This document shows, in pieces, positions 24,897 through 42,485 of a DNA stretch of 64,000 nucleotides (positions are counted from its first letter, which is position 1; every line of letters starts with the position of its first letter). The notes under the pieces were generated by a model. It made no database searches. It was not told the DNA's origin and was given only the letters and a program-made list of their open reading frames with translations. The position numbers and the translations under genes were made by a program. The stretch is from Candidatus Eiseniibacteriota bacterium (lineage in GTDB: Bacteria > Eisenbacteria > RBG-16-71-46 > SZUA-252): positions 11,162-75,161 of the forward strand of contig DASTKC010000169.1 in NCBI GenBank assembly GCA_035716085.1, given 5' to 3'.

Positions 24897-26609
24897 ATGA
24901 AGTCGTTTCCGACGCAGGCAGGTCCGCGCGCGATCGTCGGCGCGGCGCTCGTGATCCTCGCCCTCGCCGTGGCCGTCCCGATCGTGTGGAAGCGTCCCAC
25001 GAGCGAACCCGGCGTCTCGTCGGGTGAAGGATCGAGCGAGCCGGCACCGCCCGTGCTCGGCCCGCCGTCCGGTCCGCGGGTCTTCCGCTTCTATCAGGAA
25101 TCCCCCACGACGCTCGATCCCGCGCTCGCCGCAGACGCGTACTCCTCGACGGTGGTGGCGCAGATCTACAGCCCGCTCGTAGGGCTCACGTCGAATCTCG
25201 AGCCCACGCCGCAGGTCGCGGATTCCTGGACCATCTCCCGCGACGGGAAGACCTACGTCTTCCACATCCGCGAAGGCGTGCGCTTTCACAACGGCCGCGA
25301 GGTCACGGCCGGGGACTTCGTGTACACGCTGACCCGCTGCTTCCAGGAGCCGTTCCGCTCGGAGGGGCTCGCGGCGGGCTACCTCGACGCCATCGACGGC
25401 GTGCCCGAGTTCCTCGCCGGCAAGGCGACCAGCATCCGCGGCATCCACGCGCTCGACGAGAAGCGCCTCGAGATCAAGCTGAGCCGCCCGTACCGTCCGC
25501 TCCTCTCGGCGCTGGCGCTCGACCAGACCTCGGTCGTGCCGCGCGAGCTCATGGACCGGCACGGGAACGCGATCCTCGAGGTGAAGCCGACCGGCTGCGG
25601 GCCGTTCAAGTACGTGCGCCGCGACGATCGGAGCGTTGTCCTCGCCGCGAATCCCGACTATTTCATGGGAGCCCCGGCGATCGATTCGCTCGTGTTCTTC
25701 ACGCCGGTCGGCGACGTGATCTCGCAGGGGGCGAACGCGCTCCTGGACGGGCGCGCCACGCTGTCGACGTTGCCGATCGACCGGGTGGAGGAGTTCCGGG
25801 CCCGGGCCGGCATCACGATGCTCCGCTGGCAGGATCTCACGCTCGCCTTTCTCGGCATGAACGCGACGATCCCGCCCCTCGACGATCGCCGCGTCCGTCA
25901 GGCCATCGCGTTCGCGGTGGACCGTCAGGCGATGATCCACTTCCAGCCCGAGGGGAAGACGCTCGCCACCGGGATCCTCGCGCCGGGCGTGCCGGGCTAT
26001 TCGCCCGCGACGCGCACGTATCCATGCGACGTCGCGAAGGCGAAGGCTCTGCTCCACCAGGCAGGCTACGGGCCGGATCATCCCCTGCCCACGCTGAAGC
26101 TCTACAAGTCGGTCACGTCGAATTCAGGGGTCCGGGCGCTCGACTCGCTCCTGGTGCGCTCGCTCGCCGAGGCCGGAATCAAGGTCGAGATCCAGTACGT
26201 CACCTGGAAGGTGCTGGACGACGCGATTACCGGACGCAAGGCGCAGCTCTTCAGCCTCTCGTGGGTCGCGGACATTCCCGACCCCGACACGTTCCTCCGC
26301 GCGCTCTTCTACTCGTCGAGCTCGACCAACTACTTCAAGTACCGGAACGCGACCGTGGACTCGCTCCTCGACGCCGCCCGGAGCGCGGAAGATCCGAAAG
26401 TGGCCCAGGCGGCCTATCAGAAGGCCGAGGAGCGGATTCTCCGCGACGCGCCGTTCGTGCCGCTCTTCCATCCCACGAACTTCATCGGGCTGCGCAGCAA
26501 CGTCGTCGGTCTCCAGATGAACCCGCTCGGCATCTCGACCCTGGCCATGGAGAAGCTCCGCTTTGCGGAGCCGAAGGCGGATGGCGACAACCGAAGCGCG
26601 ACCCGCTGA
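24897..26609 (+). CDS. Solute-binding protein, family 5 (OppA/DppA/NikA-like), secreted
   Basis: Signal/anchor, then …FRFYQESPTTLDPALAADAYSSTVVAQIYSPLVG…DGKTYVFHIREGVRFHNG…, typical of SBP_bac_5. Confidence 0.8.
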   Translation: MKSFPTQAGPRAIVGAALVILALAVAVPIVWKRPTSEPGVSSGEGSSEPAPPVLGPPSGPRVFRFYQESPTTLDPALAADAYSSTVVAQIYSPLVGLTSNLEPTPQVADSWTISRDGKTYVFHIREGVRFHNGREVTAGDFVYTLTRCFQEPFRSEGLAAGYLDAIDGVPEFLAGKATSIRGIHALDEKRLEIKLSRPYRPLLSALALDQTSVVPRELMDRHGNAILEVKPTGCGPFKYVRRDDRSVVLAANPDYFMGAPAIDSLVFFTPVGDVISQGANALLDGRATLSTLPIDRVEEFRARAGITMLRWQDLTLAFLGMNATIPPLDDRRVRQAIAFAVDRQAMIHFQPEGKTLATGILAPGVPGYSPATRTYPCDVAKAKALLHQAGYGPDHPLPTLKLYKSVTSNSGVRALDSLLVRSLAEAGIKVEIQYVTWKVLDDAITGRKAQLFSLSWVADIPDPDTFLRALFYSSSSTNYFKYRNATVDSLLDAARSAEDPKVAQAAYQKAEERILRDAPFVPLFHPTNFIGLRSNVVGLQMNPLGISTLAMEKLRFAEPKADGDNRSATR

Positions 26610-28926
26610 CGCTCCTCGCCGCTCGCGCGGCGGTCTGCAGGCGCGAATCTTCCTCACGTTCGGCGTCATCGTCGTGGGGCTGGTCACGGCCGCGGTCACG
26701 TTCTTTGTCCGGAGCGAGTCCGATTCGCTCCTTCGCGAGACGAAGAAGCGCGGCTTCGCCGTGGCCCGAAGCATCGCCTGGCTCTCCACGCCGGCTCTCC
26801 TCTCCTACAACTACATCGCGCTGAACCAGGCCGCGAGCCGCTCGCAGGCAGGGAGCGAGATCGCGTACGTCGTCATCTACGACAAAGAGGGCCAGATCGC
26901 GGCGGACAGCCGGTCCCCCAATTCCTTCGGCCAGCCCCCGCGGGAGACCGCCGACTTCGCCGCCCAGACCGCACGGGAGGAGCGGTGGAGCTTCATCGAG
27001 CCGCGGCGTCCCGGCGACGCGCGCATTCTCGAGATCCTCCTTCCCGTCTACGTCGAGGGTTACGAGGTGAAGTGGGGCACGGTCCGCGTCGGGATCTCGC
27101 TCGAAGGGCTGGACAACGAGGTGGCGGCGCTCACGAAGAACCTCATCATCGCGGGCTTCCTGGCGTCGATCCTGTGCCTCCTCGGCGCGCGGTTCGCGTC
27201 GGGGCGCATCACGAGGCCGATCGGCCGGCTGGTCGGCGCGACACGCGCCATTGCGCAGGGGGACTACTCGCAGCGGCTGAATCTGAAGAGCGGCGACGAG
27301 ATCGAGACCCTGGCGTGGCACTTCGACCACATGGCCGACGAGGTGCAGCGCCAGCAGGCCGAGATCCTGGCGAGCCGGGAGAATCTCGCCCGCATGAACC
27401 AGACCCTCGAGGCCGCCGTCGAGGCGCGGACGCACGCGCTCACCGAATCGGAGGCCAAGTACCGGATCCTCGTCGACAGCTCGCCGCAGGGTCTTCTGAT
27501 CGTGCAGTCCGGGAAGGCGGTCTTCGCGAACCCGACCCTCGAGCCGATGACCGGGCGCCCCGCGTCCGCTCTCGTCCGGCCCGACTTCGATCCGATGCAG
27601 CTCTTCGCCCTCGAGTCGCGGGCTCTCGTGCGCGAGGCGATCCAATCGCCCGCTCGCGACCGGGCGCCGGTCCAGGCCGAGATGGTCCATGCGTCCGGGC
27701 GGAAGGTCTTCGCCGAGGTCCAGGTCGTGCCGCTCGTCTTCCAGAACGCGCCGGCCTCGATGCTCCTCCTGTCCGACGTCACCGCGGTCCGCGATCTCCA
27801 AGACCGGCTCCTCCGCGGCGAGAAGCTCCGCGCGCTCGGTGAGCTGGCGGCCGGGGTGGCGCACGACTTCAACAACAACCTCGGGATCATCCTCGGTCGC
27901 ACGCAGCTCCTTCTCATGAAGACGTCCGACCCGGAGGTCTCGTCCGGCCTCAACGTGATCCGCCAGGCGGCGATGGACGGCGGCGAGGCCGTGCGCCGGA
28001 TCCAGCAGTTCAGCCGCGTCCGCGAGGACCGCGCGCACGAAGTTCTGGAGCTGGGCGAGATCGTCGTGGAGGTCGTGGAGATCACGCGCGGCAAGTGGAA
28101 GAACGAGAGCGAGCGGCGCGGCGTCAAGGTGGACGTGACGGTGGAAGCGTCGAATCCGAGCCCCATCCTCGGCTCCCGCGCGGAGATTCGCGAGGCGCTC
28201 ACCAACCTCATCTTCAACTCCGTGGATGCGCTCCCGGAGGGCGGGACCATCACCATCCGCTGCCGCTCGGACCAAAAGGAGTCGATCGTCGAGGTGGCCG
28301 ACACGGGGATCGGGATGAGCGAGGACGTGAAGAGCCGGATGTTCGAGCCCTTCTTCACGACGAAGGGCATGTCCGGGAACGGGCTCGGACTCTCGATGGT
28401 CTACGGCATCGTATCCCGCCACAAGGGGACGGTCGAAGTCGAGACCGCGCCCGGCGCCGGCACCGTCGTTCGCATGCGCCTGCCGGCGACCGATCTCGAG
28501 GGAACCGTCATGCCCGCGCGTCCGCGGTACGAGGCCCCGGCGCGCGCACGCATCCTCGTTGTGGACGACGAGACCGAGATCCTCGCGGTGCTGCGCGAGG
28601 CGCTCGAGCGCGTGGGGCACACCGTCGAAACCGCCTCCTCGGGGAGGGAAGGCATCGAGCGCTTCCGGAACGGAGCCTTCGACGTCGTGCTCTCGGATCT
28701 CGGGATGGCGGACGTCGGTGGATGGGACGTGGCGCGCGCGGTGCGCGAGAAGGGCCCGCGGCGCGTGGTCCTGGGGCTCGTCACCGGATGGGGAGCCACG
28801 ATCAGCGAGGAGATGGTCAACGCCCACGCGGTGAACTTCGTGATCGCGAAGCCTTTCGACGTGGACGATCTCGTGTCGAAGGTGAATCAGTCCCTGGAGG
28901 CGGTCGCTATGCCTCCAGCCGCTTGA
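26581..28926 (+). CDS. Hybrid sensor histidine kinase (2 TM, periplasmic sensor, HAMP, PAS, HisKA, HATPase_c, C-terminal receiver)
   Basis: HAMP (…RPIGRLVGATRAIAQGDYSQRL), H-box ELAAGVAHDFNNNL, G-boxes DTGIGM and GNGLGLS, REC RILVVDDE…DVVLSDLGMADVGG. Overlaps the SBP gene by about 29 nt. Confidence 0.85.
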   Translation: MATTEARPADAPRRSRGGLQARIFLTFGVIVVGLVTAAVTFFVRSESDSLLRETKKRGFAVARSIAWLSTPALLSYNYIALNQAASRSQAGSEIAYVVIYDKEGQIAADSRSPNSFGQPPRETADFAAQTAREERWSFIEPRRPGDARILEILLPVYVEGYEVKWGTVRVGISLEGLDNEVAALTKNLIIAGFLASILCLLGARFASGRITRPIGRLVGATRAIAQGDYSQRLNLKSGDEIETLAWHFDHMADEVQRQQAEILASRENLARMNQTLEAAVEARTHALTESEAKYRILVDSSPQGLLIVQSGKAVFANPTLEPMTGRPASALVRPDFDPMQLFALESRALVREAIQSPARDRAPVQAEMVHASGRKVFAEVQVVPLVFQNAPASMLLLSDVTAVRDLQDRLLRGEKLRALGELAAGVAHDFNNNLGIILGRTQLLLMKTSDPEVSSGLNVIRQAAMDGGEAVRRIQQFSRVREDRAHEVLELGEIVVEVVEITRGKWKNESERRGVKVDVTVEASNPSPILGSRAEIREALTNLIFNSVDALPEGGTITIRCRSDQKESIVEVADTGIGMSEDVKSRMFEPFFTTKGMSGNGLGLSMVYGIVSRHKGTVEVETAPGAGTVVRMRLPATDLEGTVMPARPRYEAPARARILVVDDETEILAVLREALERVGHTVETASSGREGIERFRNGAFDVVLSDLGMADVGGWDVARAVREKGPRRVVLGLVTGWGATISEEMVNAHAVNFVIAKPFDVDDLVSKVNQSLEAVAMPPAA

Positions 28927-29410
28927 TCCAGCGCACGTCCCCCGACTTGAGCCGCCGCTCCCGGTAGCCCACCGCTTCGAGGAATCGCTCCCCGTCGTCG
29001 AGCCCCATCGGGACCTCCGCCGTGATCGACTGCGCCGCGTGCTCCTCGGCGAGGAACGCTTCCACCATCTCGAGCGCGGCGCGGCCGTATCCATGGCCCC
29101 GCTCCGCCTGCGAGAGCACGAGGCCGCGCAGCACGGACGGCACCTCGTCGGAGCCGACCTCGACTTCGATCGTCCCGATCAGCGCCTTCGTGTCCGTGCG
29201 CCGGATGGCGAAGTAGTAGCGGCTGTCGTCGGCGATCGCCTCTTCATACATCTCTTCCACGGTATTCGGATCGAAGTCCGAGGTGCCGCTCAAGGCCTCG
29301 AAGTAGTCTGGTGCGTCGAGGTAGACCTTCCAGATGGTGGGCAGATGCTCCGGTCCCGGCACCTCCAGCGTGACCAGGGGACCGTCGAGACGGGTGGTGG
29401 ATTCGCTCAT
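28907..29410 (-). CDS. GNAT family N-acetyltransferase
   Basis: About 167 aa. GHGYGRAALE motif-A-like segment. ATGA-type overlap with the upstream protease gene. Confidence 0.6.
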   Translation of the reverse strand: MSESTTRLDGPLVTLEVPGPEHLPTIWKVYLDAPDYFEALSGTSDFDPNTVEEMYEEAIADDSRYYFAIRRTDTKALIGTIEVEVGSDEVPSVLRGLVLSQAERGHGYGRAALEMVEAFLAEEHAAQSITAEVPMGLDDGERFLEAVGYRERRLKSGDVRWIKRLEA

Positions 29411-32331
29411 CGTAGGAGAACGGCCTTTTGCGTGCGCACCCGGTGCCCGGACCGTAGCTGGATGAAGTAGACGCCGGTCCCGACCGGATTCCCCCGGTCG
29501 TCGGTGCCGTCCCACGTGAACGGCGAAGTACCCGCGCGGCCGGACAGGTCAGCGAGGGTGCGCACGAGCGACCCGTCGGCACGATAGACCCGTACCATAA
29601 AGCGGCCGTCCTGGTCCAGGGACACCGGGAACGAAGCGGCGCGCGCGAACGGATTGGGCTGCACGCGGCCGATCGCGAACACGCGCGGCGCGCCGCCAGG
29701 GCCCACGCCTGCCGTCACCGCCGCGTTCACGGGGCCCGCCGTGCTCGACGGCTCACCGTCGCGTGACACCGTGAGCCAGTAGTCGTAGTCCACGCCCGCG
29801 GTCACGTGTTCGTCGACATAGGTGCCGCTCCGGGACTCCCAAGGAAGAATCGCGACTGTCTTCCGGCCGTCGTCCGCGCTCGCCCGCTCGATTTGAACGG
29901 TCGAGCCCGTATTCTCGGACAGATTCCATTCGAGCCGCACGCCCGGCCGATCCAGGAGCGCGATCGCGTTGAAGCTGTTGATCGCGATCGCCGTCGCGGC
30001 GCAGTCGTCCGTGCCGGCCACCTGCACGTCGTCGATCCACCAGCCCAGACCTTCGTTCGGGGGGACGGACCGGAAGTGGAACGCGAACTGGACGGGACCG
30101 CTCAGACCGTCGAGCGGGAAGACCGCTTCGGCGAACGTTGCCTGCGTGCCGGTCCAGCGGAAGCCGTTCGAGTAGCCGCCCACCGGGACGATCGTCGTCC
30201 ATGTCTCCCCAGCGTCGACGGATACCTCCACGTTGAGGCCGTCCACGCCGGGCTCGGTCGAGTACCGCTGCCAGAAGCGGAGCGTGTCGGCGGGACCGGC
30301 CAGCCAGACGGGCTGGCTCACGAGGCGCGCGTCCTCAGCCGGTGCGTATGTGTCGAGGGTGCCCGGCTTTCCGAGACGCCACGCCCACGTGCCCTTCGGC
30401 GTGTGGTTGATGCCGGCCTCGCGATGCCACTCGTTCACGCCGTCGCAGCCGAGCGGCACCGAGATCCAGCGGCGGATCGTGCCCTCGAAGGAATCGCAGA
30501 TCCCCGTCTTCGCGCCGACCAGGACCTGCACGCTGTCGCTGTCGACGAGGCCCGCGGACGCATGGACTCCGTGCGACACGCTCACGCCCCGCGGGTCCGG
30601 AGTGGGAAGGATCGTGGCCGTGATGCTGGAGCCCAGGCTGGTCGAGCTCGCGGCGATCGACCCGTACGTGATCGTGTCCGTGTCCACGCTCATGAAGGCG
30701 GGCTCGGGCCGGATCTTCGCGCCGAGGGATCCGGTGGCCGTGGGGCCGATGTTCAGGAGGGGGAAGTTGAGATGCACGACCTCGCCCGGCTCGGCGCGGC
30801 CGTTTCCGTTGTTGGGCGTGCCCAAAAGGGGAGCGTCGTCGACGACGATGGGCAGACGCCGCACGTCCACGCCGGTCACGAAGAAGCTCGCCATCACGTC
30901 CCCTCCGGCCTCGGCGATGTTCCGGATCGCGACCTGGCTCGGTACGTGGAAGCAGGAGGTCGCGCTGCTCGGACACGAGTTGCCGTTGAACGCGGTGGTG
31001 CCGAGCGGGCCCGGCCACGGATCGTAGCGATCGCCTCGATTGCCGTTCACCGAGGTGGAGACGCCGCAGACCTCCTTCGTGCCGAGCGCGCCCGCCGGTA
31101 GGTCGAGGTTCTGGTTTCCGGGGTGCCCTCCCTGCTCGGGCCCTCCCGCTTCGACCACGTCGACCATCTTGTGGGCGGGGTCGTCGTTGTTGGAGCGGTT
31201 CTCGTCGATGTGGTAGATGACGAGGCCGTGCGCGGGGCCGAGTCCCGCCTCGACCGAGGAGCGGACGAGCGTGGAATCGAAGCCGACCGGCTGCCGGTTC
31301 TCCACGAGGAAGTATTCGTTCGACTCCTGGCCGTTCGTCCACAAGCGGAAGACCTGGCCCGAGCTTTCGACGGGCGGGATGGTCACGCCCGATGAGTCCT
31401 GCGTCACCCAGGTCGGCTGGACCCAGCCGAGCCTCGCCTTGCACCACGCCGACATGTGCGCCGGCGTCGTGCCGGGCGCATGCGCGGGGGAGTGCGTGTA
31501 GAGCCCGTACGCCATCAGATCCCACTCGCCGTCGCCCGAGCTCTGGTTGTCGTCCAGGTCGTAGAGGTCAGGAAGCCCCAGGATGTGGCCGAACTCGTGG
31601 CAGAAGACGCCGATCGAGATGAGATCGCCCGCGCTGTAGTACGCCGAGTTGAGCCCCCACTCCTCGGGCTCCGTCGTGAATGCGTAGAGCGTGGTCCCGT
31701 CCAGCGTGACTCCCCCGGGGAGGTTCCACTTGAGCGACCAGATCTGGTCGACGCTCCCCGTCTCCTCGCCCCCTGGCCCCGCGTGCACGACGAACACGCC
31801 GTCCACGAAGCCGTCGCCGTCGCCGTCGAACTGGGACCAGTCGATGTCGGGGTCCGCGAGAAGCATCGCGTCCTGCGCCATCCCCTGCGCGTTCGTGGGA
31901 AAGGCGCCGAATCCCGACTGGCTGTTCACGTAGTACGAGTAGGGGTGGGGCGCCGTGTACCAGCGCGTCACCACGCCCTGCACGTCGAGCTGATTGCGCG
32001 AGACTTCGCGATAGTAGTCGCGGAAGCTTCCGGTCGGACGCGTGCCGACGCTGAAGAGGAGGCTGTCGTACGCCTCGGGCGGGTGCGCCAGCGTGTCCGC
32101 CGCGAGGTCGGGGAACTGGAGCAGGACGACGACCACTCGCTTGATGCCGGTCGTGGTCGCGCGCGCTTCCGCGAGATCCACCTCGGGAGCGCGATGAAGC
32201 TGTGAGTAGAGCGCGCGGGCGCGGGACACCGTGCGGGCGCCCGGCCCTGTGTTGTCGAGAGGAGGTGCGGCGTGAGCGGCGGTCGCGCCCAGGGCCAGGC
32301 ACACTCCAAGGAGCAGCCCTTGAAGGCGCAA
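29407..32331 (-). CDS. Secreted M6-like (InhA/immune inhibitor A-type) zinc metalloprotease with FlgD-Ig/T9SS-type C-terminal domain
   Basis: Signal peptide MRLQGLLLGVCLALGATAAHA. HEXXHXXGXXD = HEFGHILGLPD. C-terminus PNPFARAASFPVSL…RVYRADGSLVRTL…GVYFIQL…KAVLLR. Confidence 0.7.
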   Translation of the reverse strand: MRLQGLLLGVCLALGATAAHAAPPLDNTGPGARTVSRARALYSQLHRAPEVDLAEARATTTGIKRVVVVLLQFPDLAADTLAHPPEAYDSLLFSVGTRPTGSFRDYYREVSRNQLDVQGVVTRWYTAPHPYSYYVNSQSGFGAFPTNAQGMAQDAMLLADPDIDWSQFDGDGDGFVDGVFVVHAGPGGEETGSVDQIWSLKWNLPGGVTLDGTTLYAFTTEPEEWGLNSAYYSAGDLISIGVFCHEFGHILGLPDLYDLDDNQSSGDGEWDLMAYGLYTHSPAHAPGTTPAHMSAWCKARLGWVQPTWVTQDSSGVTIPPVESSGQVFRLWTNGQESNEYFLVENRQPVGFDSTLVRSSVEAGLGPAHGLVIYHIDENRSNNDDPAHKMVDVVEAGGPEQGGHPGNQNLDLPAGALGTKEVCGVSTSVNGNRGDRYDPWPGPLGTTAFNGNSCPSSATSCFHVPSQVAIRNIAEAGGDVMASFFVTGVDVRRLPIVVDDAPLLGTPNNGNGRAEPGEVVHLNFPLLNIGPTATGSLGAKIRPEPAFMSVDTDTITYGSIAASSTSLGSSITATILPTPDPRGVSVSHGVHASAGLVDSDSVQVLVGAKTGICDSFEGTIRRWISVPLGCDGVNEWHREAGINHTPKGTWAWRLGKPGTLDTYAPAEDARLVSQPVWLAGPADTLRFWQRYSTEPGVDGLNVEVSVDAGETWTTIVPVGGYSNGFRWTGTQATFAEAVFPLDGLSGPVQFAFHFRSVPPNEGLGWWIDDVQVAGTDDCAATAIAINSFNAIALLDRPGVRLEWNLSENTGSTVQIERASADDGRKTVAILPWESRSGTYVDEHVTAGVDYDYWLTVSRDGEPSSTAGPVNAAVTAGVGPGGAPRVFAIGRVQPNPFARAASFPVSLDQDGRFMVRVYRADGSLVRTLADLSGRAGTSPFTWDGTDDRGNPVGTGVYFIQLRSGHRVRTQKAVLLR

Positions 32332-32378: not shown

Positions 32379-33830
32379 TTATAGTTCGGCGGGAGCCGGC
32401 TTCGTGCGCCCGAAGCTCGAGCGCTCCTGCTTCCCCCAGCCACCACGCCCGAGAAGCATATCGACGAGCGCGCCCAAGCGGAAGAGGAGAGTCAGGATAC
32501 GGTAGGAGAAGTTTTCGAGGATGCCGATGGCCACCATCTGCGCGAAGTCCCCCCAGGACCGGTAGAGGCCGAACGAAAGCTCCTCGAGGAACACGGCGGA
32601 AATGGACAGGAACGCGCCCGACGTGATGGCGAGGAAGAGGAAGGCCCAGAAGTAGAGCGGATCGAGAAAGCCCATGAAGTACGCGATCGGGATGATGATG
32701 TAGCCCACCAGCTCCACGATCGGTCCCAGAAACTCGAACAGGAAGTAGTACGGGATGCCGATCCAGCGAAGCGTCCCGGAGTGCTTGCCCCAGATCAGGC
32801 TCTTGTGGCACCAGAGCGAATGGACCATCCCTCGGTGCCACCGGCTCCGCTGCCGCGCGAGCGCGCCCAACCCCTCGGGGACTTCGGTCCAGCAGATGGG
32901 ATCGGGCAGAAAGACGACCGAGTACTCGCGGTTCATCTCCCGCATGCGGCGGTGCAGCCGGAGCACGAGCTCCATGTCCTCGGTGACCGTGCTCGCGTCG
33001 TAGCCCCCGGCCTCGATCACCACATCCTTCCGGAACAGACTGAACACGCCCGAGAGAATGAGGAGGCTGTTCAGGGCGGACAGCCCGAGCCGGCTCGCCA
33101 CGAACGCGCGAAGGTATTCGACCACCTGGAACGCGGCGAGGATGTTCGTGGGGAGCTTGGGCTCGACCACGCGGCCGCGCTGGATCTTGCAGCCGTTCGC
33201 AACGCGCACCTGGCCACCGACCGCGATCACGCGATCCGGATCCTCGAGGAACGGGCGCACGACGCGCAGGAGCGCGTTCTCCTGGAAGACCGAGTCCGCG
33301 TCGACCGTGCAGAAGAGCGGATACCGGGACAGGTTGAGCCCCATGTTGAGCGCGTCGGACTTTCCGCCGTGCTCCTTGTCCACGACCACGAGGTTGGGCA
33401 CCGCGGACGAGCGATAGATCCCGCCGATCGCGCCCAGGGTCGTAAGCCTCCGCCGGTAGACGGCCTCGCGGCGCTCGAGCCCGAACTCCCGGACCAGCTT
33501 CTGGAGCGTGTCGTCCGTCGACCCGTCATTGATCACGATCACCTCGTGCTGCGGGTAATCGAGCGACAGCACCGAGCGCACCGAGTCGACGATGCCGGCC
33601 GATTCGTTGTACGCGGGCACGAGCACGCTGATCGGGAAGGTGAAGTGCGACTTCGCGACCGCCTCGTAGTCCGCGTAGAAGTTCTGCGCGAGGCGGCGGC
33701 GCATGTCGAAGAAGGAGAGGATCAGGAGCCCGAACAGGACGAGCTGGAGCGCGCTGAAGTAGAGCAGGATCACGAGGCTGATCGTGTTGATCAGATGCAT
33801 CGCCCAGGGCTCGAGGACGTAGCCGCTCAT
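32379..33830 (-). CDS. Processive family-2 glycosyltransferase (PgaC/IcaA/cellulose-synthase-like exopolysaccharide synthase)
   Basis: N-terminal TM helices. GT-A core (VLVPAYNES…DGSTDDT…TVDADS), QxxRW = QRSRW. C-terminal TM bundle. ATGA overlap with upstream HEAT gene. Confidence 0.8.
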   Translation of the reverse strand: MSGYVLEPWAMHLINTISLVILLYFSALQLVLFGLLILSFFDMRRRLAQNFYADYEAVAKSHFTFPISVLVPAYNESAGIVDSVRSVLSLDYPQHEVIVINDGSTDDTLQKLVREFGLERREAVYRRRLTTLGAIGGIYRSSAVPNLVVVDKEHGGKSDALNMGLNLSRYPLFCTVDADSVFQENALLRVVRPFLEDPDRVIAVGGQVRVANGCKIQRGRVVEPKLPTNILAAFQVVEYLRAFVASRLGLSALNSLLILSGVFSLFRKDVVIEAGGYDASTVTEDMELVLRLHRRMREMNREYSVVFLPDPICWTEVPEGLGALARQRSRWHRGMVHSLWCHKSLIWGKHSGTLRWIGIPYYFLFEFLGPIVELVGYIIIPIAYFMGFLDPLYFWAFLFLAITSGAFLSISAVFLEELSFGLYRSWGDFAQMVAIGILENFSYRILTLLFRLGALVDMLLGRGGWGKQERSSFGRTKPAPAEL

Positions 33831-34894
33831 CACGCCGTCTCCCGGTGGGGCGTCGGAACGATGCCCATGGCCGAGAGCCCCTCGGCGGCGCTGTCCCGCG
33901 CGAAGCGGTCCTCGCTCGTCAGGGTGCGGAGGAGGACGTCCTTCGACGGCTCGCCCAGCGAGACGAGCGCGTCCAGCGCGTTCTTCCTGACCCACCACGA
34001 CCGGTCGCGAAGAAGCTCGCCGAGCGCGTCGACATAGGCGGTGTCCTGGATCTTCCCGAGCGCCTCCGCCGCGTGCGCGCGCACGAACCAGATCGGGTCG
34101 TGGAGCAGAGGTGCTAAGAGCGGCGCCGTCGAGCGGTCGCCCACGTGCCCCAGCGCCCACGTCGCGGCGGAGCGCACGTCGGAATCGGTGTCGAGGAGCG
34201 CGTCCGCGAGCGACCGCGTCGCGCGCGGATCCTTGATCTCGCCGAGGATGCGGGCAGCCCAGAACCGCGCCTTGGGCGAGCCGTCGCGGAGCGTCTTGAT
34301 GAGGAGCGGCGCCGTGCGCGAGCCCATCTCGATGCAGATGGCCGCGATGCGCGCGGAGACGGCCTGATCGTGCTTGCCCAGGAGCGCGACCAGGGCTTCC
34401 TCCGTCGCCTGGAGGCGCATCCGCCCGAGGGAGCGCGCCGCGACGTTCCGGACGTCGGGGTCCCGGTCCTCGAGCGCGCTCAAGAGCGTCGGCACGGACT
34501 GCGGCAGCTTGAGCTCCCCCAGGATCCGCAGCGCGTGCGCGCGCGTCCACTTGAGCCGGCTCTTCGCGTCCTTCAGGTGCCGGTTCACCGCCCCCGACTC
34601 CTCGAGCGTGCGGAGCACGTCGAGGCGAAGGGACAGCTCGAGCTGGCTGATCTCCTCGGCCGCGAGCTCCGACCAGCGCCCCGAGAGCGACTGGACGATC
34701 CAGGGGAGCGCCTCGCGCTGCCCTTCGGGCGACCGGAGGAGGAGGAACCGCTTCCTCAGATTCTCGAGGAAGCGCTGCTTCGAATCCTCTTCCCGGTTCG
34801 AGTAGATCTTGTTGACGATGGCCGCGATGGTGGTGAGCGCGACGATCCCGAGGAGGAGGAGCAGCGTGAAGATGAGGGACTGGTAGTCGATCAT
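33830..34894 (-). CDS. Membrane-anchored HEAT-repeat (PBS-lyase type) protein
   Basis: N-terminal TM (LIFTLLLLLGIVALTTIAAI). At least 4 HEAT-like repeats (DPDVRNVAARSLG, DSDVRSAATWALG, DPIWFVRAHAAEALG, DRSWWVRKNALDAL). Confidence 0.65.
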   Translation of the reverse strand: MIDYQSLIFTLLLLLGIVALTTIAAIVNKIYSNREEDSKQRFLENLRKRFLLLRSPEGQREALPWIVQSLSGRWSELAAEEISQLELSLRLDVLRTLEESGAVNRHLKDAKSRLKWTRAHALRILGELKLPQSVPTLLSALEDRDPDVRNVAARSLGRMRLQATEEALVALLGKHDQAVSARIAAICIEMGSRTAPLLIKTLRDGSPKARFWAARILGEIKDPRATRSLADALLDTDSDVRSAATWALGHVGDRSTAPLLAPLLHDPIWFVRAHAAEALGKIQDTAYVDALGELLRDRSWWVRKNALDALVSLGEPSKDVLLRTLTSEDRFARDSAAEGLSAMGIVPTPHRETA

Positions 34895-34895
34895 C

Positions 34896-36554
34896 TCACC
34901 ACCGCGCCGATCCCGAGACCCCGAGGTACCAGGTCTCGTAGGAATTGTTGTCGACGGAGTAGGAGGCCTCGAGGCCGAGCGGGAGCGTGCCGAACGCGGT
35001 CAGGTTCAGATAGCCGCTCCAGGTGTGCGTCCAGATGTCCGCGAAGTTGGTGGAGTTGATTCCGGCGAACTCGTAGCGGAATCCGTAGTCGATCGCCGAG
35101 CGCTCCTCGTAGCCCGCGATGGAGACTCCGGCGGAGCCTCGAACGCTTCCGAGCGGGGTGAAGTAGCTCCGGCTCGTGAAGTCCCAGTCGCGATAGGTGA
35201 GCCGGCTGTCCACCGTGACGCTCGGAGTCCCCGTCTTCGCCCGGTAGGACGCGCCACCTCCCGCCGTCCAGCGGCGGTTGTCGTCGGAGTAGACCCCGCG
35301 GGAGACCAGGGCGTCCGCCGTGCCGCGCGCGCTCCACTGCCAGCCGACGCCGCCCTCGTACTCGTCCACGTGCCCCGGCACGAACGCGGTGTCGGGCGCC
35401 GTCTCCTTGAGCGCGATGTAGTCGCGATGAATGGCCCCGCGCGGCGTGAAGCGCCCCGAGAAGCGCCAGACGCGCGCGCCCCACCCGAAGAACGTGTCGT
35501 CCTCGCCGAGCGGGAAGAGCATCGTTCCGGGGTTCTGATCGAACGATCGATACTCGACCGAAGCCGCGGCCTGCCACGGATACCCTCGGAGGAACGAGCC
35601 GTCGATGCGCGTCACCACGCTCGACAGGTCGTAGTTCTTGGCGCTGCCGGCGCCCGGCGTTTCGACGAGATCGAGCCAGGAGACGCGTCCCGTGAACGTG
35701 GCTCTGCGGGCCATCGTGCCGCGCCCCTGGATGTAGGGGCCGTCGGTCTCGAGCGTGAAGTCGGGCGCGAGATCGACGTACTCGCGCTCGTGGGACGCGC
35801 TCCATCCCGTGCCCAGGGACGGCCTGAGGGCGGTCGCGACCGCGCCCTTTTCCTCGGCCATGGCCTCCGGGTCCGCATGCAGGGACTCGGCGCGCGTCAC
35901 GAAGCGGTCCGACGCGGTCGCGGCGCCCCGCCAGCGTGCGACCGACGCGAGGCCGAGCCACGCGTCGCCGGTGCGCGGATCCGCGGCGAGGATGCGCTGG
36001 TACTCGGTGGACGCCTCGGCGAGATCGCCGCTCCAGGAGAGGACGCGCGCGTAGCCGACCCGCGTCTCGAGATTCGTCGAGTCGGCCTGGATCGCGGTGC
36101 GGAACTCGCGCGCCGCTTCCGTGTGGCGTCCGGACCACGCGAGCACGCGCGCGTAGCTCGCGCGAAGCGTGGCGTCGTTCGGCTTCTTGGCGAGGAGCTC
36201 CCGGTACTCGGCGAGCGACTCGTCGTAGCGCCGCTGCCACGAGAGCACGCGCGCGAGGAGGAGCCGCGCGTCGTCGTTGTTCGGACGCATGCGGAGCTCC
36301 GACTGGAGGAGCGGGATCGCTTCGGCTTGCCGGTCTTCGCGAAGGCGCGCGCGCGCGGCATCGTAAGGGCTCACGCCCGCCGTCTGGGCGAGGGCGGGCG
36401 CGGTGTGCGCGAGGATGGCGATGAGGAGCGCCGCGCGGATCGCCGCGCGGAACGGCCTACGGCCGGTCGGCGTCGACCTTCTGGCTTCGGCTGGCTTCAC
36501 GGGCTTCCATTCCCTCGAAGGCGCGCTGGATGATGTCGGCGGAACGCTTGACAC
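34896..36554 (-). CDS. Outer-membrane exopolysaccharide export protein: N-terminal TPR repeats + C-terminal beta-barrel (PgaA/BcsC/PelB-like)
   Basis: Signal peptide. TPR region (…RLLLARVLSWQRRYDESLAEYRELLAKKPND…). C-terminal alternating amphipathic beta-strands ending in aromatic residue W. Alternative GTG start at 36500. Overlaps upstream gene by 44-98 nt. Confidence 0.6.
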   Translation of the reverse strand: MSSVPPTSSSAPSREWKPVKPAEARRSTPTGRRPFRAAIRAALLIAILAHTAPALAQTAGVSPYDAARARLREDRQAEAIPLLQSELRMRPNNDDARLLLARVLSWQRRYDESLAEYRELLAKKPNDATLRASYARVLAWSGRHTEAAREFRTAIQADSTNLETRVGYARVLSWSGDLAEASTEYQRILAADPRTGDAWLGLASVARWRGAATASDRFVTRAESLHADPEAMAEEKGAVATALRPSLGTGWSASHEREYVDLAPDFTLETDGPYIQGRGTMARRATFTGRVSWLDLVETPGAGSAKNYDLSSVVTRIDGSFLRGYPWQAAASVEYRSFDQNPGTMLFPLGEDDTFFGWGARVWRFSGRFTPRGAIHRDYIALKETAPDTAFVPGHVDEYEGGVGWQWSARGTADALVSRGVYSDDNRRWTAGGGASYRAKTGTPSVTVDSRLTYRDWDFTSRSYFTPLGSVRGSAGVSIAGYEERSAIDYGFRYEFAGINSTNFADIWTHTWSGYLNLTAFGTLPLGLEASYSVDNNSYETWYLGVSGSARW

Positions 36555-38796
36555 GTTCTTTAGTTATCGGCGTTTCCCACGTCGTCCATGAGTAGGACGC
36601 CTGAGGCGGTGTCTTGACCGTAAGCTCTTCATTCATAGTGCTTTGGATGGATCCGGCCGGACCCAGGACGAAGACCTCGCCTGGCTTCACGGGTTTGGCT
36701 CCGGCCAGGGTCGGCCCCAGCGAATCGGGACGGAAGCAGGCGGCCGTCGTGGCCCAGGCGAGAAGGCCGACGCCCGGCGTCTGGGTCGTCTCGATGTCCG
36801 CTGTTCCGTCCTTGTCGTCCAGCGCGGCGCGGGACGAGGGGTCGCCGACAACAAGGCCCCACGGAATTGCGATCTCCACCGTGGTCCCCAGCGAATCGAA
36901 GGCGCACTCGAGCCGCCCCCAATCGAAGTACTTCGCCGGAAAGAACAAGCCGTTCCGCGCGACGCGCTCGCGGTTCGTCTCCACGACGAGGGGAACGTAC
37001 GCGCCCGCAGCGTTCGCCACGGGTCGCGCCGGCGCGCGACCTCGCCGCCGCCAGTCGCGTCCGTCCCATTCCCTCATGAAGGACGAGACGTTCATCGCGC
37101 GATCCTGGTAGAGCTCCGCGCCCCCGCGCGGGCTGCCCTTGCTCGGAGGCGTGACCAGGAGCGCGAGCTCGGCGCCGCGGGACCACGAGACGGGAAGCGG
37201 CTGCGGAAGGCGACGGTCGCCGCGCGCGGGATCGAGCACGTCGAACGAGACTCCGAACGTGCGCACCGCGGGTTTGCGCGGCGCGACGTCGAGTCGCAGA
37301 TAGAGGGAGGTTTGATCGGATGTGACGTAGAGAGCGCGAAGCGGGGCTCCGCCCTGGACGGCGTCGGACGCCGCGTAAGGCGAAATCCCGCTCCAGTCGT
37401 CGATCGCGCCGTCGATACGAATGGGCGCGGGAGGGTCGAACGCCAGGAGACCGTAGTTCTCCTCGGGGTCGAGACGGTTCAGCCAGAGCGGATCGCGATC
37501 GCGTGGGCGCTCGCTTCGCTCGACGAGCCAGTTCACCTTGTACCACTCATCGAAGAGCGAGAACAGCAGCGATCCCGATGCGCCGGACTCGGCGATGTCC
37601 TCGAGGAGCCGGACGTCGTCCTGTCCCTGCTGGATCTCGGTGGCGCCACCGTGGTGGATGCCCTGCGGCTGCTGGTGTGCGACCCCGCGGCTGGTCGGCA
37701 CGCCGTATTCCCCGATCAGGAGCGGGATCCCGCGCGTGTGCGCCTTGAGGTCCGCGAGATAGCCGGCGTACGAGCAGACGCCGTGGCGGTCGTGGAACGC
37801 CTGGTAGTTCGGGTCGAGGTTCATGAAGTCGGGGTAGTAGGGATACGCATGGTAGTTCGCGAAGTAGCCGAGGAAGCCCGACGTGAGCGTGGCGGAATCG
37901 ACCGGCACGAGATGCGATGGATCGACGGAGTAAGCGTCCTCGTCGTGCTCCGCTTCGCCGCCACCCCGCTCGGTCTCCGTCGGGTGGCGCATCGGATCCA
38001 GCGTGGGCCAGTTCACGAACGAGACCGCGTGCGCGCGCGCGTAGTGGACCCGTTCGTAGGACACCGTGAGATCGCAGACGCGGCCGAGCCACGCTTCCAT
38101 CGCCGTGCCGTGCTCGACTTTGAACCGAGTGCCCGCGAATTCGGTGATGTCCGGATGGAGCCGCTGCGTCTCGCGCACGGCGTAGGGCTCCCATTCGCGG
38201 CCGATGAGCCACCCCGCCAGCCACGGGGAGACGTCCGCCTCGTAGCGCCCCGAGGCGTGCCCCGGGCGCTCGTCGACGATCGCGTTCCCGTGCACGGCGT
38301 CGATCGCGAGCCGGAGCTCGTTCTCGAATCCACGCGTGTACGCTTCGTCCCAGAAGTCGTTCCCGTCGGGCAGCTCGGTCCAGACTTCCTGGAAGAGCCA
38401 GATGGGATCGTTCGGATGCGCCTCGTTCTCCTCGCGCAGCGCTTCGTAGAAGCGGGGCGGATGGAGCGCGTACACGCGGATCGAGTTCGCGTGCATCGAG
38501 CGCGCGAACCGGAGCCAGCGGCGATAGTCTTCCTTCGTGATCGCGAATTCGCCGGGGTAATGCCCCGGGGGCGCGGCGCCCAGGTTGAGCCCGCGGAAGA
38601 AGACGGTTCGGGAGCCGGAGGGCGTCGCGATCTCGAATCGGTCCCCGCGCGCGAGCACCGCGCGTGTCGGTGGGGAGGGAATGGGCGCGCGTGGATCCCG
38701 GATGGTCTTCCACGGGCGCGGCCCGGCGTCTCCCGCGAGAGCGGGAAGGGCGCAGCCCAGGATCAGGACGGGGACCAGGATGTCGCGCAGCCGCAT
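36457..38796 (-). CDS. Secreted putative glycoside hydrolase (TIM-barrel, GH5/GH-like), probable polysaccharide-processing enzyme
   Basis: Signal peptide MRLRDILVPVLILGCALPALA. N-terminal region …FFRGLNLGAAPPGHY…ANSIRVYALHPPRFYEAL…IWLFQEVW… is TIM-barrel hydrolase-like. Family not assignable by eye. Confidence 0.45.
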   Translation of the reverse strand: MRLRDILVPVLILGCALPALAGDAGPRPWKTIRDPRAPIPSPPTRAVLARGDRFEIATPSGSRTVFFRGLNLGAAPPGHYPGEFAITKEDYRRWLRFARSMHANSIRVYALHPPRFYEALREENEAHPNDPIWLFQEVWTELPDGNDFWDEAYTRGFENELRLAIDAVHGNAIVDERPGHASGRYEADVSPWLAGWLIGREWEPYAVRETQRLHPDITEFAGTRFKVEHGTAMEAWLGRVCDLTVSYERVHYARAHAVSFVNWPTLDPMRHPTETERGGGEAEHDEDAYSVDPSHLVPVDSATLTSGFLGYFANYHAYPYYPDFMNLDPNYQAFHDRHGVCSYAGYLADLKAHTRGIPLLIGEYGVPTSRGVAHQQPQGIHHGGATEIQQGQDDVRLLEDIAESGASGSLLFSLFDEWYKVNWLVERSERPRDRDPLWLNRLDPEENYGLLAFDPPAPIRIDGAIDDWSGISPYAASDAVQGGAPLRALYVTSDQTSLYLRLDVAPRKPAVRTFGVSFDVLDPARGDRRLPQPLPVSWSRGAELALLVTPPSKGSPRGGAELYQDRAMNVSSFMREWDGRDWRRRGRAPARPVANAAGAYVPLVVETNRERVARNGLFFPAKYFDWGRLECAFDSLGTTVEIAIPWGLVVGDPSSRAALDDKDGTADIETTQTPGVGLLAWATTAACFRPDSLGPTLAGAKPVKPGEVFVLGPAGSIQSTMNEELTVKTPPQASYSWTTWETPITKERVKRSADIIQRAFEGMEAREASRSQKVDADRP

Positions 38797-39610: not shown

Positions 39611-40702
39611 TCAACGCGCGGCGGCGGGCTGCGCCGCTTGAGCCGCGGCCATCCCGCTCTCGAAGAGCTTCGGGTTGGTGGACCGTGAGAGCGCGGCCTG
39701 GGCCGTGATCTTGCCCGAGGTCACGAGATCCTTGAGCGCCTGGTCCAGCATGACCATGCCGTCCTTGGCTCCCACCTGCATCATGCTCGGGATCTGGGCG
39801 GTCTTGCCCTCCCGGATCAGGTTCCGGAGCGCGGGCACGCCGACCAGGATCTCGTGCGCGGCGACGCGCCCCTTGCCGTCGGCGGTCGGGATCAGGGTCT
39901 GCGCGACGACTCCCTCGAGCGACTCGCTCAGCATCGTTCGGATCTGTGCCTGGCGGTCGGCGGGGAAGATGTCGACGAGGCGGTCGATGGTCTTGGGCGC
40001 CGAGTTCGTGTGGAGCGTGCCGAACACGAGATGTCCCGTCTCCGCGGCGGTGATCGCGAGCGACGTCGTCTCGAGATCGCGGAGCTCGCCCACGAGGAGA
40101 ATATCCGGATCCTCGCGGAGCGCGCCCCGAAGCGCGGCCGCGAAGCTCGTCGTGTGCGCGCCCACCTCGCGCTGGTTGATGAGGCATCGCTTCCGCTCGT
40201 GAACGAACTCGAGCGGGTCCTCGATCGTGATGATGTGCTTGGGGAACGTGGCGTTCACGTAGTCGATCATCGCCGCGAGCGTCGTCGACTTGCCGCTCCC
40301 GGTCGGTCCCGTCACGAGCACGAGTCCGCGCTCCTTCGACGCGAGATCGCGGAGGATGGCTGGCCCCTTCAGCTCCTCGAGGGTCGGGACCTTCGTCGCG
40401 ATGACCCGGAACACGGCGCCGACGCCGCGGCGCTGCTCGAAATAGTTCGCCCGGAAGCGGGAGAGCCCCGGGATTTCGATGGCGAAGTCGAGCTCGTGCC
40501 GCTCTTCGAAGTCGGCCTTCTGGGCCGGGGTCAGCAAGGAGTAGAGCGCGTCCCGCGTCTCCTTCGGATCGAGCGGCGGCGTCTGGAACGGAACGATGTC
40601 GCCTCGCATGCGCGCCATGGGCGGCGACGCCGTCGAGATGTGAAGGTCGGACGCCTTCGCCTCGACGATCGCCTTGAGGAGCGCCTGGATGTCGACGGGC
40701 AT
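39611..40702 (-). CDS. pilT: Type IV pilus retraction ATPase PilT
   Basis: Walker A GPTGSGKSTT, Asp box, Walker B ILLVGELRD, His box GHLVFGTLHTNSA. Confidence 0.85.
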   Translation of the reverse strand: MPVDIQALLKAIVEAKASDLHISTASPPMARMRGDIVPFQTPPLDPKETRDALYSLLTPAQKADFEERHELDFAIEIPGLSRFRANYFEQRRGVGAVFRVIATKVPTLEELKGPAILRDLASKERGLVLVTGPTGSGKSTTLAAMIDYVNATFPKHIITIEDPLEFVHERKRCLINQREVGAHTTSFAAALRGALREDPDILLVGELRDLETTSLAITAAETGHLVFGTLHTNSAPKTIDRLVDIFPADRQAQIRTMLSESLEGVVAQTLIPTADGKGRVAAHEILVGVPALRNLIREGKTAQIPSMMQVGAKDGMVMLDQALKDLVTSGKITAQAALSRSTNPKLFESGMAAAQAAQPAAAR

Positions 40703-42189
40703 CAGCGTCCCTGACCTTTCCAGAGGCGCTCGCGGTCCTCGTCGCTCAGGATCGTGACTTCGAGAATGCCGGCCCGGTGCTCGGCCTCTTCCGGCTCCGC
40801 CCACGCCGAGGAGCCTTCATGGCGCGCGGTCGGCAGCGCGATCATCGCGAACGGACGATCGCGCAGCACGGCACGCCCGTTCGGGCTGTCTGCGAGGCAC
40901 TGGAGGAGGGCTTTCCCGTCCAGCCATCCCGTGCGGGCGAAGACGAGCCGCCCCACCGCGGCTCCGTCCAGGAGCTCCGCCACGGAATCGCCGTGAAGGA
41001 GGTCGTCCAGCACGACGATGTCCGCTCCGAGACCGACCGAGGCACGACGCCAGTTCACGCTGGAGGGGTCTCCGGCCTGGAACTGGATCCGGGTCACTCC
41101 CGCGGGATAGGGCGCCGTGGGCCACGGCTCGAAGGCGACGACGCGGCGCTCGGGCTTCATGGCGAGAGACGCGAGCGAGGCGAGCACGGTCGAGCCGCCC
41201 GCCCGCGGCGGGCCGTACACGATCACGAGCCCCTCCGGGCCCTCGACGAATTCGCGAATCTCGCCCTCGCCGAGCGGAGAGAGCCCGAGCAGCGAGAGAT
41301 CGGGCGCCTCGGCTCGATCGGGGTGGAGTCGAAGCACCGTCGTCACGCCGGAAGCGCCGCGAGCGTGGCAGACGCCGACGTGCACGCGATCGCCGCTCAG
41401 GTCGGCCATCACGTGCCCCTGGACTGCGAGCTCACCCATCTCCAGATCCGGCGCGCCCAGGTGCGCGAGGCGCGTGCGCAGGTAGAGCATGGTCTCCGGC
41501 TGCTCGACCCCGCGGGGCTCGAGTCCCTTGTCGGTCCGGTAGTGCACCGCGATGCCGCCCTTTTCCGGCACGAAGTGGATCTCGGACGCACGGTCGTTGC
41601 GCGCGGTATAGACGTGATAGAGGAGGAAGGTCGATCCAGAGCGCTCCCAGACCACCCGGTGGCGCGGCTCGCCCCCGGCCGCGGCCGCTATCGTGGCCGC
41701 CTCGGCCGCGCTCGCGCGCGCGGCGACCTTGTCCCGCGATGGCCGCTCCGGCCCGTAGACGTTGTCGAGCACCCGGCGGATCGACCCCTGGCAGCCGATG
41801 ACGAGCGAGACGGGCATCCCCGCCGCCTGCTCGATCTCCCTCACGGCCTCGGAGTCGGTGGGATCGGACATCGCGATGACCATCTCCTCCGGGTTCTGGA
41901 AGAGGGGCATCGCCTGGATGCGACGAAGGAGCGATTCGGGGAAGCGCCGGACGAGATCCATGTCGGCGGCGCCGGACGCGAGGTCCACATACGGAATGCC
42001 GAGCTGCTTGGAGAGGGCCCAGCCGATGTTCTCCTCGGTCGTGAAGCCCATCTCGACGAGGCTCTCGCCGATCAGGCGGCCGGTCTCGAGCTGCTGCTGG
42101 AACGCGGCATCCACCTGTTCCGGAGTCACGATCCCGCCGTCGATCAGGATCGACGCCAGGGTCCGCTTCGTCTGACCGGTCTCGCTCAC
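40702..42189 (-). CDS. MshEN-domain (c-di-GMP receptor type) protein fused to degenerate GspE/PilB-like ATPase domain
   Basis: N-terminus has two MshEN motifs (RTLASILIDGGIVTPEQVDAAFQQQ; RLIGESLVEMGFTTEENIGWALSKQ). C-terminal P-loop region degenerate (GPPRAGGST instead of GPTGSGKT; Walker B/His box not conserved). Start uncertain (GTG 42189, or ATG 42249/42288). ATGA overlap with pilT. Confidence 0.6.
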   Translation of the reverse strand: MSETGQTKRTLASILIDGGIVTPEQVDAAFQQQLETGRLIGESLVEMGFTTEENIGWALSKQLGIPYVDLASGAADMDLVRRFPESLLRRIQAMPLFQNPEEMVIAMSDPTDSEAVREIEQAAGMPVSLVIGCQGSIRRVLDNVYGPERPSRDKVAARASAAEAATIAAAAGGEPRHRVVWERSGSTFLLYHVYTARNDRASEIHFVPEKGGIAVHYRTDKGLEPRGVEQPETMLYLRTRLAHLGAPDLEMGELAVQGHVMADLSGDRVHVGVCHARGASGVTTVLRLHPDRAEAPDLSLLGLSPLGEGEIREFVEGPEGLVIVYGPPRAGGSTVLASLASLAMKPERRVVAFEPWPTAPYPAGVTRIQFQAGDPSSVNWRRASVGLGADIVVLDDLLHGDSVAELLDGAAVGRLVFARTGWLDGKALLQCLADSPNGRAVLRDRPFAMIALPTARHEGSSAWAEPEEAEHRAGILEVTILSDEDRERLWKGQGR

Positions 42190-42485
42190 GAGGCACCTCT
42201 GCGTCCGGGGGTTGGGAATCGATTCGGCCCTGGGCGAATCGCAAGGCATGTGCCATGCGTACCCCACGGCATGGCGCGCCAGGGCCATGGCCGCCGCCTT
42301 GCTCGATTCGGAGGGAACGCGGTGCGAAATGGCGAGTTGAGAAGCGATGAGCGGTGGGTCGCAGCCCCTGGCGGGGACCTCTACGCGGCTCCCGGGGCGG
42401 CGCAATGCTTGCCCCTTGCTCGGCCAGCGGTTATTTTCTGCGCGGTTTCCATGCAGCGCATCGACACCTCATCGGACGGGAGCCC

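Follow-up and report, generated by a model that had tools for sequence, protein, structure and literature searches.

Four minus-strand genes, which together occupy positions 32379-38796 of a 64,000-nt stretch of contig DASTKC010000169.1 (hereafter the window), probably encode a synthase-dependent machine for exopolysaccharide synthesis and export of a type not yet described, a reading to which we give roughly three chances in four. The source is a metagenome-assembled genome of a soil bacterium of Candidatus Eisenbacteria, with a GC content of ~68%. Synthase-dependent systems, i.e. those for cellulose, poly-N-acetylglucosamine (PNAG), alginate and Pel, are the reference models for the biofilm matrix of Gram-negative bacteria, and nearly all the knowledge of them comes from Proteobacteria. 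Three general features of the class are found in the window: a family 2 glycosyltransferase (GT2) with synthase motifs and transmembrane (TM) segments, an outer-membrane protein that combines TPRs and a beta-barrel, and a periplasmic hydrolase whose activity is predicted. Together with a membrane-anchored HEAT-repeat protein, they form what appears to be a distinct and undescribed variant of these systems.

The four open reading frames (ORFs) are present where the initial annotation of the window, made from the sequence alone, had placed them. They code for the predicted hydrolase (36457..38796, minus strand, 779 aa), the putative outer-membrane export porin (34896..36500, minus strand, 534 aa), the HEAT protein, a candidate synthase co-subunit or adaptor (33830..34894, minus strand, 354 aa), and the GT2 (32379..33830, minus strand, 483 aa). 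The full-length hydrolase is 100% identical to an NCBI protein (locus tag VFR25_06880) and the three other ORFs were identified by exact look-up as the NCBI calls HET9940805-7. The hydrolase gene stops at 36457 and overlaps the porin gene by 44 nt if the latter starts at GTG 36500, or by 98 nt if it starts at the alternative GTG 36554; the two starts account for both values of the 44-98 nt overlap claimed earlier. The start at 36500 is backed by homologues of 534-535 aa and by the NCBI call HET9940807. Direct reading of the sequence confirmed that 1 nt separates the porin stop (TGA 34896-34898) from the HEAT start (ATG 34894). The HEAT and GT2 genes had been described as sharing an ATGA overlap. 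Their tight coupling stands but ATGA is a slight misreading: the HEAT stop (TGA 33830-33832) and the GT2 start called by NCBI (ATG 33830) form a TGATG with a 1-nt overlap, and the alternative GT2 start (GTG 33833) would give a GTGA with a 4-nt overlap. The GT2 gene stops at 32379. The four genes are translationally coupled and tightly packed. Promoter and terminator scans performed at chance level and do not inform on the transcription unit.

The GT2 is matched by Pfam GT2 families and is predicted to be embedded in the membrane, with hydrophobic or TM segments before and after its catalytic domain. It aligns with residues 129-448 of the R. sphaeroides BcsA structures in the PDB, i.e. from the GT-A domain into the membrane region, and the aligned motifs are VPAYNE, DGSTDD (DDG), HGGKSDALN, DAD (DxD), TED and QRSRW. 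In the PDB and NCBIfam, it is best matched by BcsA, hyaluronan synthase (HAS) and PgaC/IcaA, none of which resembles the non-processive dolichol-phosphate mannosyltransferases to which it could otherwise have been related. The best curated NCBIfam model is that of PgaC/IcaA (TIGR03937) with 138 bits versus a cutoff of 422.3; the GT2 scores higher on this model than on the CelA models, which stay far under their own cutoffs. Among the three E. coli synthases compared, PgaC is the nearest (24.8% identity, E 2e-27), BcsA being 21% and NfrB 22% identical (E 7e-4). The sequence thus places the GT2 in the membrane-embedded BcsA/PgaC/HAS class, as an equivalog of no named synthase, and we infer that it is processive. 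This agrees with the initial annotation, which had predicted a processive-class synthase with QRSRW, flanking TM segments and no PilZ domain. Pfam and NCBIfam searches detected no cyclic di-GMP (c-di-GMP) receptor domain, whether PilZ, GGDEF-type or MshEN, in any of the four proteins. In relatives, 'GT2' ORFs of 600-730 aa were considered as possible fusions; the high GC content has probably led to starts being called too far upstream, and these ORFs were set aside as evidence of fusion.

Only TPRs are revealed in the porin by sequence searches, with Pfam TPR families matching at residues ~70-230. Its best NCBIfam match is the PgaA model (TIGR03939), over the TPR region only and with 56.7 bits versus a cutoff of 366.65. 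The protein carries a predicted signal peptide. Its AlphaFold2 model (pLDDT 88.7) comprises 11 TPR helices and 16 strands (residues 246-551), and the C-terminus of the barrel reads ...SARW. The five best Foldseek matches are BcsC (9b8h, 9b8a and 6tzk), PelB (9h80) and PgaA (4y25), on which the barrel has a target-normalised TM-score of 0.72. The proposed architecture of N-terminal TPRs and a C-terminal barrel, common to PgaA, BcsC and PelB, is therefore recovered in the model, and the possibility that this outer-membrane protein might lack a barrel is contradicted by the 16 strands modelled with such confidence.

The hydrolase had no match in Pfam, NCBIfam or the PDB, whether the query was its single sequence or a profile, and could be placed by fold comparison only. 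It carries a predicted signal peptide and is expected in the periplasm or outside the cell. The model contains a (beta/alpha)8 barrel (residues ~45-450), a beta-sandwich (~470-730) and a C-terminal helix, and its nearest structural neighbours are GH157 laminarinase, GH5 beta-mannanases, GH72 beta-1,3-glucanosyltransferases and GH17 laminarinase. The fold is that of the retaining glycosidases of clan GH-A (GH157, GH5, GH2, GH72, GH17), without any match at the sequence level to their family models or solved structures. A Glu follows strand 4 and another one stands on strand 7 of the barrel, as in the clan. The hydrolase differs from clan members by a REWEP motif where NEP is usual, by large conserved loop insertions and by the additional beta-sandwich domain. 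Residues R107, R200-E201-W202-E203-P204, H316, Y318, E363 and W418 are invariant in an alignment of 79 sequences from several phyla. Judging from the strand positions, we take them to be the equivalents of the GH-A Arg, acid/base Glu, His-x-Tyr, nucleophile Glu and Trp. Because invariant residues occupy these catalytic positions, the enzyme probably acts on a beta-linked substrate with a retaining mechanism. It may also represent a new GH family, as judged against Pfam, NCBIfam and the PDB. The secreted, TIM-barrel-like glycoside hydrolase of the initial annotation thus holds as a predicted enzyme, and its assignment to clan GH-A with invariant catalytic-type residues speaks against an unrelated activity. 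The low-confidence loops of the model (~264-327 and 369-447) contain many further invariant residues (H271, E274, D287, D292, H374, H382, D416, E417 and E445); these conserved loops may form a metal- or substrate-binding elaboration unseen in GH-A templates.

When genomes were scanned with the hydrolase alignment, 600 stretches that matched the pattern were examined and 583 of them proved to be relatives, so that the family occurs in at least 583 species genomes. These relatives are distributed among Eisenbacteria, Gemmatimonadota, Acidobacteriota, including the cultured Geothrix oryzisoli and G. paludis, Vulcanimicrobiota, Bacteroidota and one cyanobacterium. In a library clustered at 50% identity, the family amounts to 1321 clusters at E<=1e-3 and 521 at E<=1e-30. 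The best 80 loci of the scan were compared over 8 kb on each side. The hydrolase, porin, HEAT and GT2 genes were found together in four phyla, Eisenbacteria, Gemmatimonadota, Acidobacteriota and Vulcanimicrobiota, with varying orders and strands (if A is the hydrolase, B the porin, C the HEAT protein and D the GT2: A-B-C-D; B(-)-A-C-D; A..D(-)-C(-)-B(+); A-B-D(-)-C(-)). The flanks of the cluster outside Eisenbacteria consist of unrelated housekeeping genes, e.g. those for NAD synthase, Nramp, topoisomerase I, DprA and transketolase. Several components also occur as single polypeptides. Hydrolase-TPR-barrel ORFs of 1505-1560 aa with an extra N-terminal TPR block are present in three Gemmatimonadota loci (L019 7368-12047, L034 2924-7438 and L055 7446-12020), one of which stands on a polished 3.1-Mb contig; in these products, the periplasmic enzyme would be linked covalently to its outer-membrane channel. 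A library representative of 1238 aa (P0423) is a GT2-hydrolase fusion. Fusions of the hydrolase with a carbohydrate esterase family 4 (CE4) domain were found in 16 of the 150 representatives listed (P0298, P0331 and others) and in loci L037, L070 and L075. Such linkage across phyla, in shuffled order and with component fusions, establishes the co-conservation that the initial annotation had left to be checked.

This linkage also bears on the possibility that no free exopolysaccharide is exported at all, the glycan being periplasmic or cell-bound, or the genes being neighbours through inherited synteny only. In Eisenbacteria the whole neighbourhood is syntenic (topoisomerase VI (Topo VI), MshEN, PilT, HAD, the four genes, M6, GNAT and kinase), so adjacency there says little on function. 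Nevertheless, shuffled linkage in several phyla, hydrolase-porin and GT2-hydrolase fusions, a BcsC/PelB/PgaA-type outer-membrane channel in the set and start and stop codons that overlap or nearly touch leave this possibility very improbable.

Two subtypes can be distinguished among the loci. The Bacteroidota type has no HEAT protein and combines a GT2 and a TPR-porin with a hydrolase-CE4 fusion, to which another CE4-like gene is added. The HEAT/REC type, to which the window locus belongs, has no CE4: the domain was detected neither in the window nor in any HEAT-type locus. One long member of the hydrolase family also has a HEAT_2 domain. In the cyanobacterium Cyanosarcina radialis (L063 7536-10175), no porin, HEAT or GT2 gene was detected in the 8 kb on either side of a family member, which shows that hydrolases of this family can occur apart from the module. 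Three loci labelled Bacteroidota, Acidobacteriota and Binatia (L005, L009 and L010) are of the Eisenbacteria type, with 60-65% identity and the Eisenbacteria order upstream; the gene order is full in L005, and L009 and L010 stop inside the hydrolase gene. All three contigs have likely been mislabelled or mis-binned.

The HEAT protein was annotated initially as a single-pass membrane protein made of HEAT repeats, which is supported by HEAT_2 matches (216 bits over five stretches) and by one N-terminal TM helix (residues 8-26) followed by a K/R-rich segment. According to the positive-inside rule, this K/R-rich stretch places the HEAT solenoid in the cytoplasm. The TM anchor and the K/R-rich stretch are conserved in 29 of 30 HEAT homologues across phyla. 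In 38 of 41 loci, the HEAT gene directly precedes the GT2 gene and shares its strand; of the three exceptions, two are cut by contig ends and the third is a Bacteroidales variant. With this obligate adjacency to the GT2 and the conserved membrane anchor, an accessory or regulatory synthase subunit is plausible. Variants of the partner were also encountered. The Geothrix oryzisoli HEAT protein (WP_243303525, L041 12348-13433) has no N-terminal TM helix and that of G. paludis has one; the start codon of the former is probably mis-set, or the gene damaged. Two Acidobacteriota loci (L040 13353-16919 and L064 5662-9375, both on the minus strand) encode HEAT partners of ~1200 aa with the same N-terminal TM helix, which, on reading of their sequences, seem to consist nearly entirely of HEAT-like repeats and have no adjacent REC gene.

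The proteins encoded next to the HEAT-GT2 pair in other phyla hint at how the synthase might be controlled. In 19 loci outside Eisenbacteria, HEAT-GT2 is preceded on its own strand, at a distance of at most ~500 bp, by a sequence encoding a REC domain; another four such loci have a kinase and REC pair within ~2 kb, the background frequency of REC being 0.048 domains per kb. The REC proteins take the form of a single REC in Acidobacteriota, Hpt-REC-REC in Gemmatimonadota and Hpt-REC-GGDEF-REC in Vulcanimicrobiota. This association suggests phosphorelay control of the synthase, possibly read by the HEAT solenoid. In the window, the sole nearby REC is the C-terminal domain of a hybrid sensor histidine kinase (26563..28926, plus strand; sCache_3_2-HAMP-HisKA-HATPase-REC), located 3.5 kb from HEAT-GT2 in convergent orientation. 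It is found at this position in every Eisenbacteria locus that extends far enough, and it may tentatively be viewed as the cognate regulator of the cluster, a weak proposal made by analogy with the other phyla.

A mechanism can be proposed from these observations. By homology with BcsA, PgaC and HAS, the GT2 would polymerise a beta-linked glycan from a UDP-sugar and thread it through its own membrane channel. From its context, the HEAT protein would be the obligate partner of the synthase, in the role of PgaD, IcaD or the BcsB anchor. It would probably serve also as a docking platform for a regulatory input, delivered in most phyla by a REC phosphorelay protein; in the genome of the window, the nearest candidate for this input would be the hybrid kinase 3.5 kb away. 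The porin, as its modelled fold suggests, would take the polymer through the periplasm and the outer membrane. The hydrolase is envisaged to dock on the TPR scaffold of the porin and to trim or clear the polymer, like BcsZ, PgaB or PelA.

Among the nearest known systems is pgaABCD/icaADBC, which makes poly-beta-1,6-N-acetylglucosamine. The GT2 is nearest to PgaC/IcaA, the porin combines TPRs and 16 strands as does PgaA, a periplasmic hydrolase is present, which some relatives fuse to CE4 as in PgaB, and a membrane partner is encoded beside the synthase. It is thus conceivable, though we consider it doubtful, that the cluster is a very divergent pga-type system, in which a remote PgaC would make beta-1,6-GlcNAc for export through a short PgaA, with the GH-A hydrolase and the HEAT protein as non-homologous stand-ins for the PgaB hydrolase domain and PgaD. 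The best NCBIfam models of both the GT2 and the porin TPR region, the proximity of E. coli PgaC, the superposition of the barrel on PgaA and the JGI name of the GT2 ('cellulose synthase/PNAG synthase-like') are all consistent with it, and the hydrolase-CE4 fusions of relatives reproduce the pair of PgaB activities. However, both equivalog scores are far under their cutoffs (138 vs 422 for PgaC/IcaA; 57 vs 367 for PgaA) and the GT2 is only 25% identical to PgaC. The hydrolase belongs to clan GH-A, is unrelated by sequence to GH153 and has its top folds in other families, and neither the window nor the HEAT-type loci provide a CE4. PgaD is absent: it is a two-helix protein encoded downstream of the synthase, whereas the HEAT partner is a 354-aa solenoid encoded upstream. 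BLASTP and phmmer revealed no similarity of E. coli PgaB or PgaD to the cluster proteins. The TPR region of the porin is also much shorter (534 aa overall versus 807 aa for PgaA). Finally, the usual genomic partner of the cluster is a REC phosphorelay protein, whereas PGA is under the control of c-di-GMP, which is bound by PgaC/PgaD (PMC7112194).

The cellulose system bcsABZC resembles the cluster by its GT2 with DDG/DxD/TED/QxxRW motifs, its endo-hydrolase and its TPR and 16-strand outer-membrane protein, BcsC being the best fold match of the porin. The cluster differs by the absence of PilZ, BcsB and GH8 and by a porin about half the length of BcsC; BcsB and BcsZ displayed no similarity to its proteins with BLASTP or phmmer. 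That the polymer is a neutral glycan of the beta-glucan or beta-mannan kind, similar to curdlan, cellulose or mannan, and the hydrolase an endo-glucanase or endo-mannanase in the BcsZ role, appears unlikely, slightly more so than a divergent pga system. It would fit the laminarinase, beta-mannanase and GH72 folds nearest to the hydrolase, the BcsA structures that align best with the GT2 and a cluster devoid of deacetylase. Against it, fold neighbours within clan GH-A do not predict the substrate, the GT2 scores higher on PgaC/IcaA than on CelA models, and the CE4 fusions found elsewhere in the family point to acetylated sugars. In addition, the Asn of the GH-A 'NE' motif usually contacts the 2-OH of the sugar, and a Trp replaces it in the hydrolase. 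Our best guess for the polymer of the proposed new system is a beta-linked glycan containing N-acetylhexosamine, because the GT2 is nearest to PgaC/IcaA and many family members are hydrolase-CE4 fusions; the Eisenbacteria version of the window carries no CE4.

Two other systems were compared with the cluster. In the Pel set, PelA combines a GH166 domain and a deacetylase, and PelC is a lipoprotein. The cluster recalls pelABCDEFG by its TPR-barrel protein, PelB providing the third-best porin fold, and relatives have the hydrolase-then-deacetylase fusion order of PelA. The Pel synthase is the GT4 PelF, acting with PelD, PelE and PelG, whereas the only glycosyltransferase of the cluster is a GT2 and its polymer is predicted to be beta-linked. 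GT4 family models had no match in the four proteins, among which PelD, PelE and PelG were not detected either; the PelD, PelE, PelG and PelC sequences were not compared directly. The nfrBA-ybcH genes of E. coli (phage N4 receptor) likewise associate a GT2 with an outer-membrane TPR protein, and in the window a gene with an MshEN domain starts ~1.9 kb upstream of that for the hydrolase. However, this MshEN belongs to a PilB-like protein and not to the GT2, which is only 22% identical to NfrB, and NfrA and YbcH gave no significant match to the cluster proteins. The initial annotation had concluded that the genes match neither pga, bcs nor pel. The comparisons lead to the same view, with no homologue of PgaB, PgaD, BcsB or BcsZ, no PilZ or GT4, and PgaC and PgaA equivalog scores far under their cutoffs. 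Database names of the cluster proteins are generic only. No description of the module was found in the full-text literature, the coverage of which was incomplete, so that an earlier description is possible; a survey of synthase-dependent operons (PMC7112194) makes no mention of Acidobacteria, Gemmatimonadetes, Bacteroidetes or HEAT.

Several observations weigh against the proposal of a new export machine. The polymer, the enzymatic activities and all contacts between the proteins are predictions. The hydrolase reads REWEP, with no Asn where GH-A enzymes usually have 'NE', and its model is of low confidence in places. The HEAT protein has no similarity detectable by BLASTP or phmmer to the known synthase partners PgaD and BcsB, and it is not universally required since the Bacteroidota variants do without it. 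No REC gene lies beside HEAT-GT2 in the window, the regulatory idea being taken from other phyla. Lastly, in many Gemmatimonadota loci the 8 kb per side contain only the hydrolase and the porin, so the four genes do not always form one cluster. The boldest form of the proposal, i.e. a fifth major kind of synthase-dependent system, widespread in soil phyla, with a new GH family and a synthase gated by a HEAT adaptor that reads REC phosphorylation and not c-di-GMP, is accordingly put forward as a speculative one.

Hundreds of species from abundant, little-studied soil phyla carry the module. Its hydrolase, as a candidate new GH family, could serve as a matrix-degrading enzyme, and the HEAT solenoid may be a synthase partner of a new type. 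The module also raises the possibility that a two-component system, rather than c-di-GMP, directly controls a polysaccharide synthase. Genetics are feasible as cultured Geothrix species have the cluster. Metagenome pipelines that assign 'PNAG' on the basis of hidden Markov model matches (e.g. 10.1101/2022.05.02.490339) may mis-assign such clusters.

The neighbouring genes of the window had been associated with the cluster in a common surface or biofilm theme by the initial annotation. This was not upheld: the M6 protease and MshEN genes are linked to the cluster by synteny inside Eisenbacteria only, other phyla having unrelated flanks. The M6-family metalloprotease (29407..32331, minus strand) is a lineage-specific neighbour. 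Its C-terminal domain had been taken for a type IX secretion signal; it matches FlgD_ig, and no Por_Secre_tail is among the families listed. The protease gene starts at a TTG 47 nt past the GT2 stop, behind a strong GGAAGGAG motif resembling a ribosome-binding site. It may thus be co-transcribed with the cluster, in a transcription unit that extends further. As parts of the system, the M6 protease, GNAT, HAD, PilT and MshEN genes are unsupported, for they accompany the cluster only inside Eisenbacteria. A PilB-NUDIX gene located beside the hydrolase gene in three Gemmatimonadota loci was also discarded, since it resembles an ordinary pilus ATPase. PADLOC returned generic HEAT matches only, and the cluster was not retained as a defence system.

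The MshEN module, described earlier as about 1 kb away, belongs to a gene that starts ~1.9 kb upstream of the hydrolase start. It is carried by a PilB-like protein (40702-42405, minus strand), which adjoins the gene for a bona fide PilT (39611-40804, minus strand). The MshEN domain passes the NCBIfam model of the c-di-GMP-binding motif (45.9 bits versus a cutoff of 38) and resembles the C-terminal domain of NfrB. The ATPase part is degenerate, with GPPRAGGST as Walker A and a PilB score of 89 versus a cutoff of 675. From its sequence, this protein may be a c-di-GMP receptor and not a motor. Further upstream, Topo VI subunit genes were identified at 42354-44150 and ~44150-45235 on the plus strand. 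The A-subunit domains were matched in the window, and the B subunit was assigned from an ORF favoured by its GC content at third codon positions and from the two separate genes of a related locus (L001). A 962-aa ORF (42347-45235) that could suggest a Topo VI B-A fusion was rejected as a frame over-extension, since L001 has two separate genes; both subunit genes are conserved in related Eisenbacteria.

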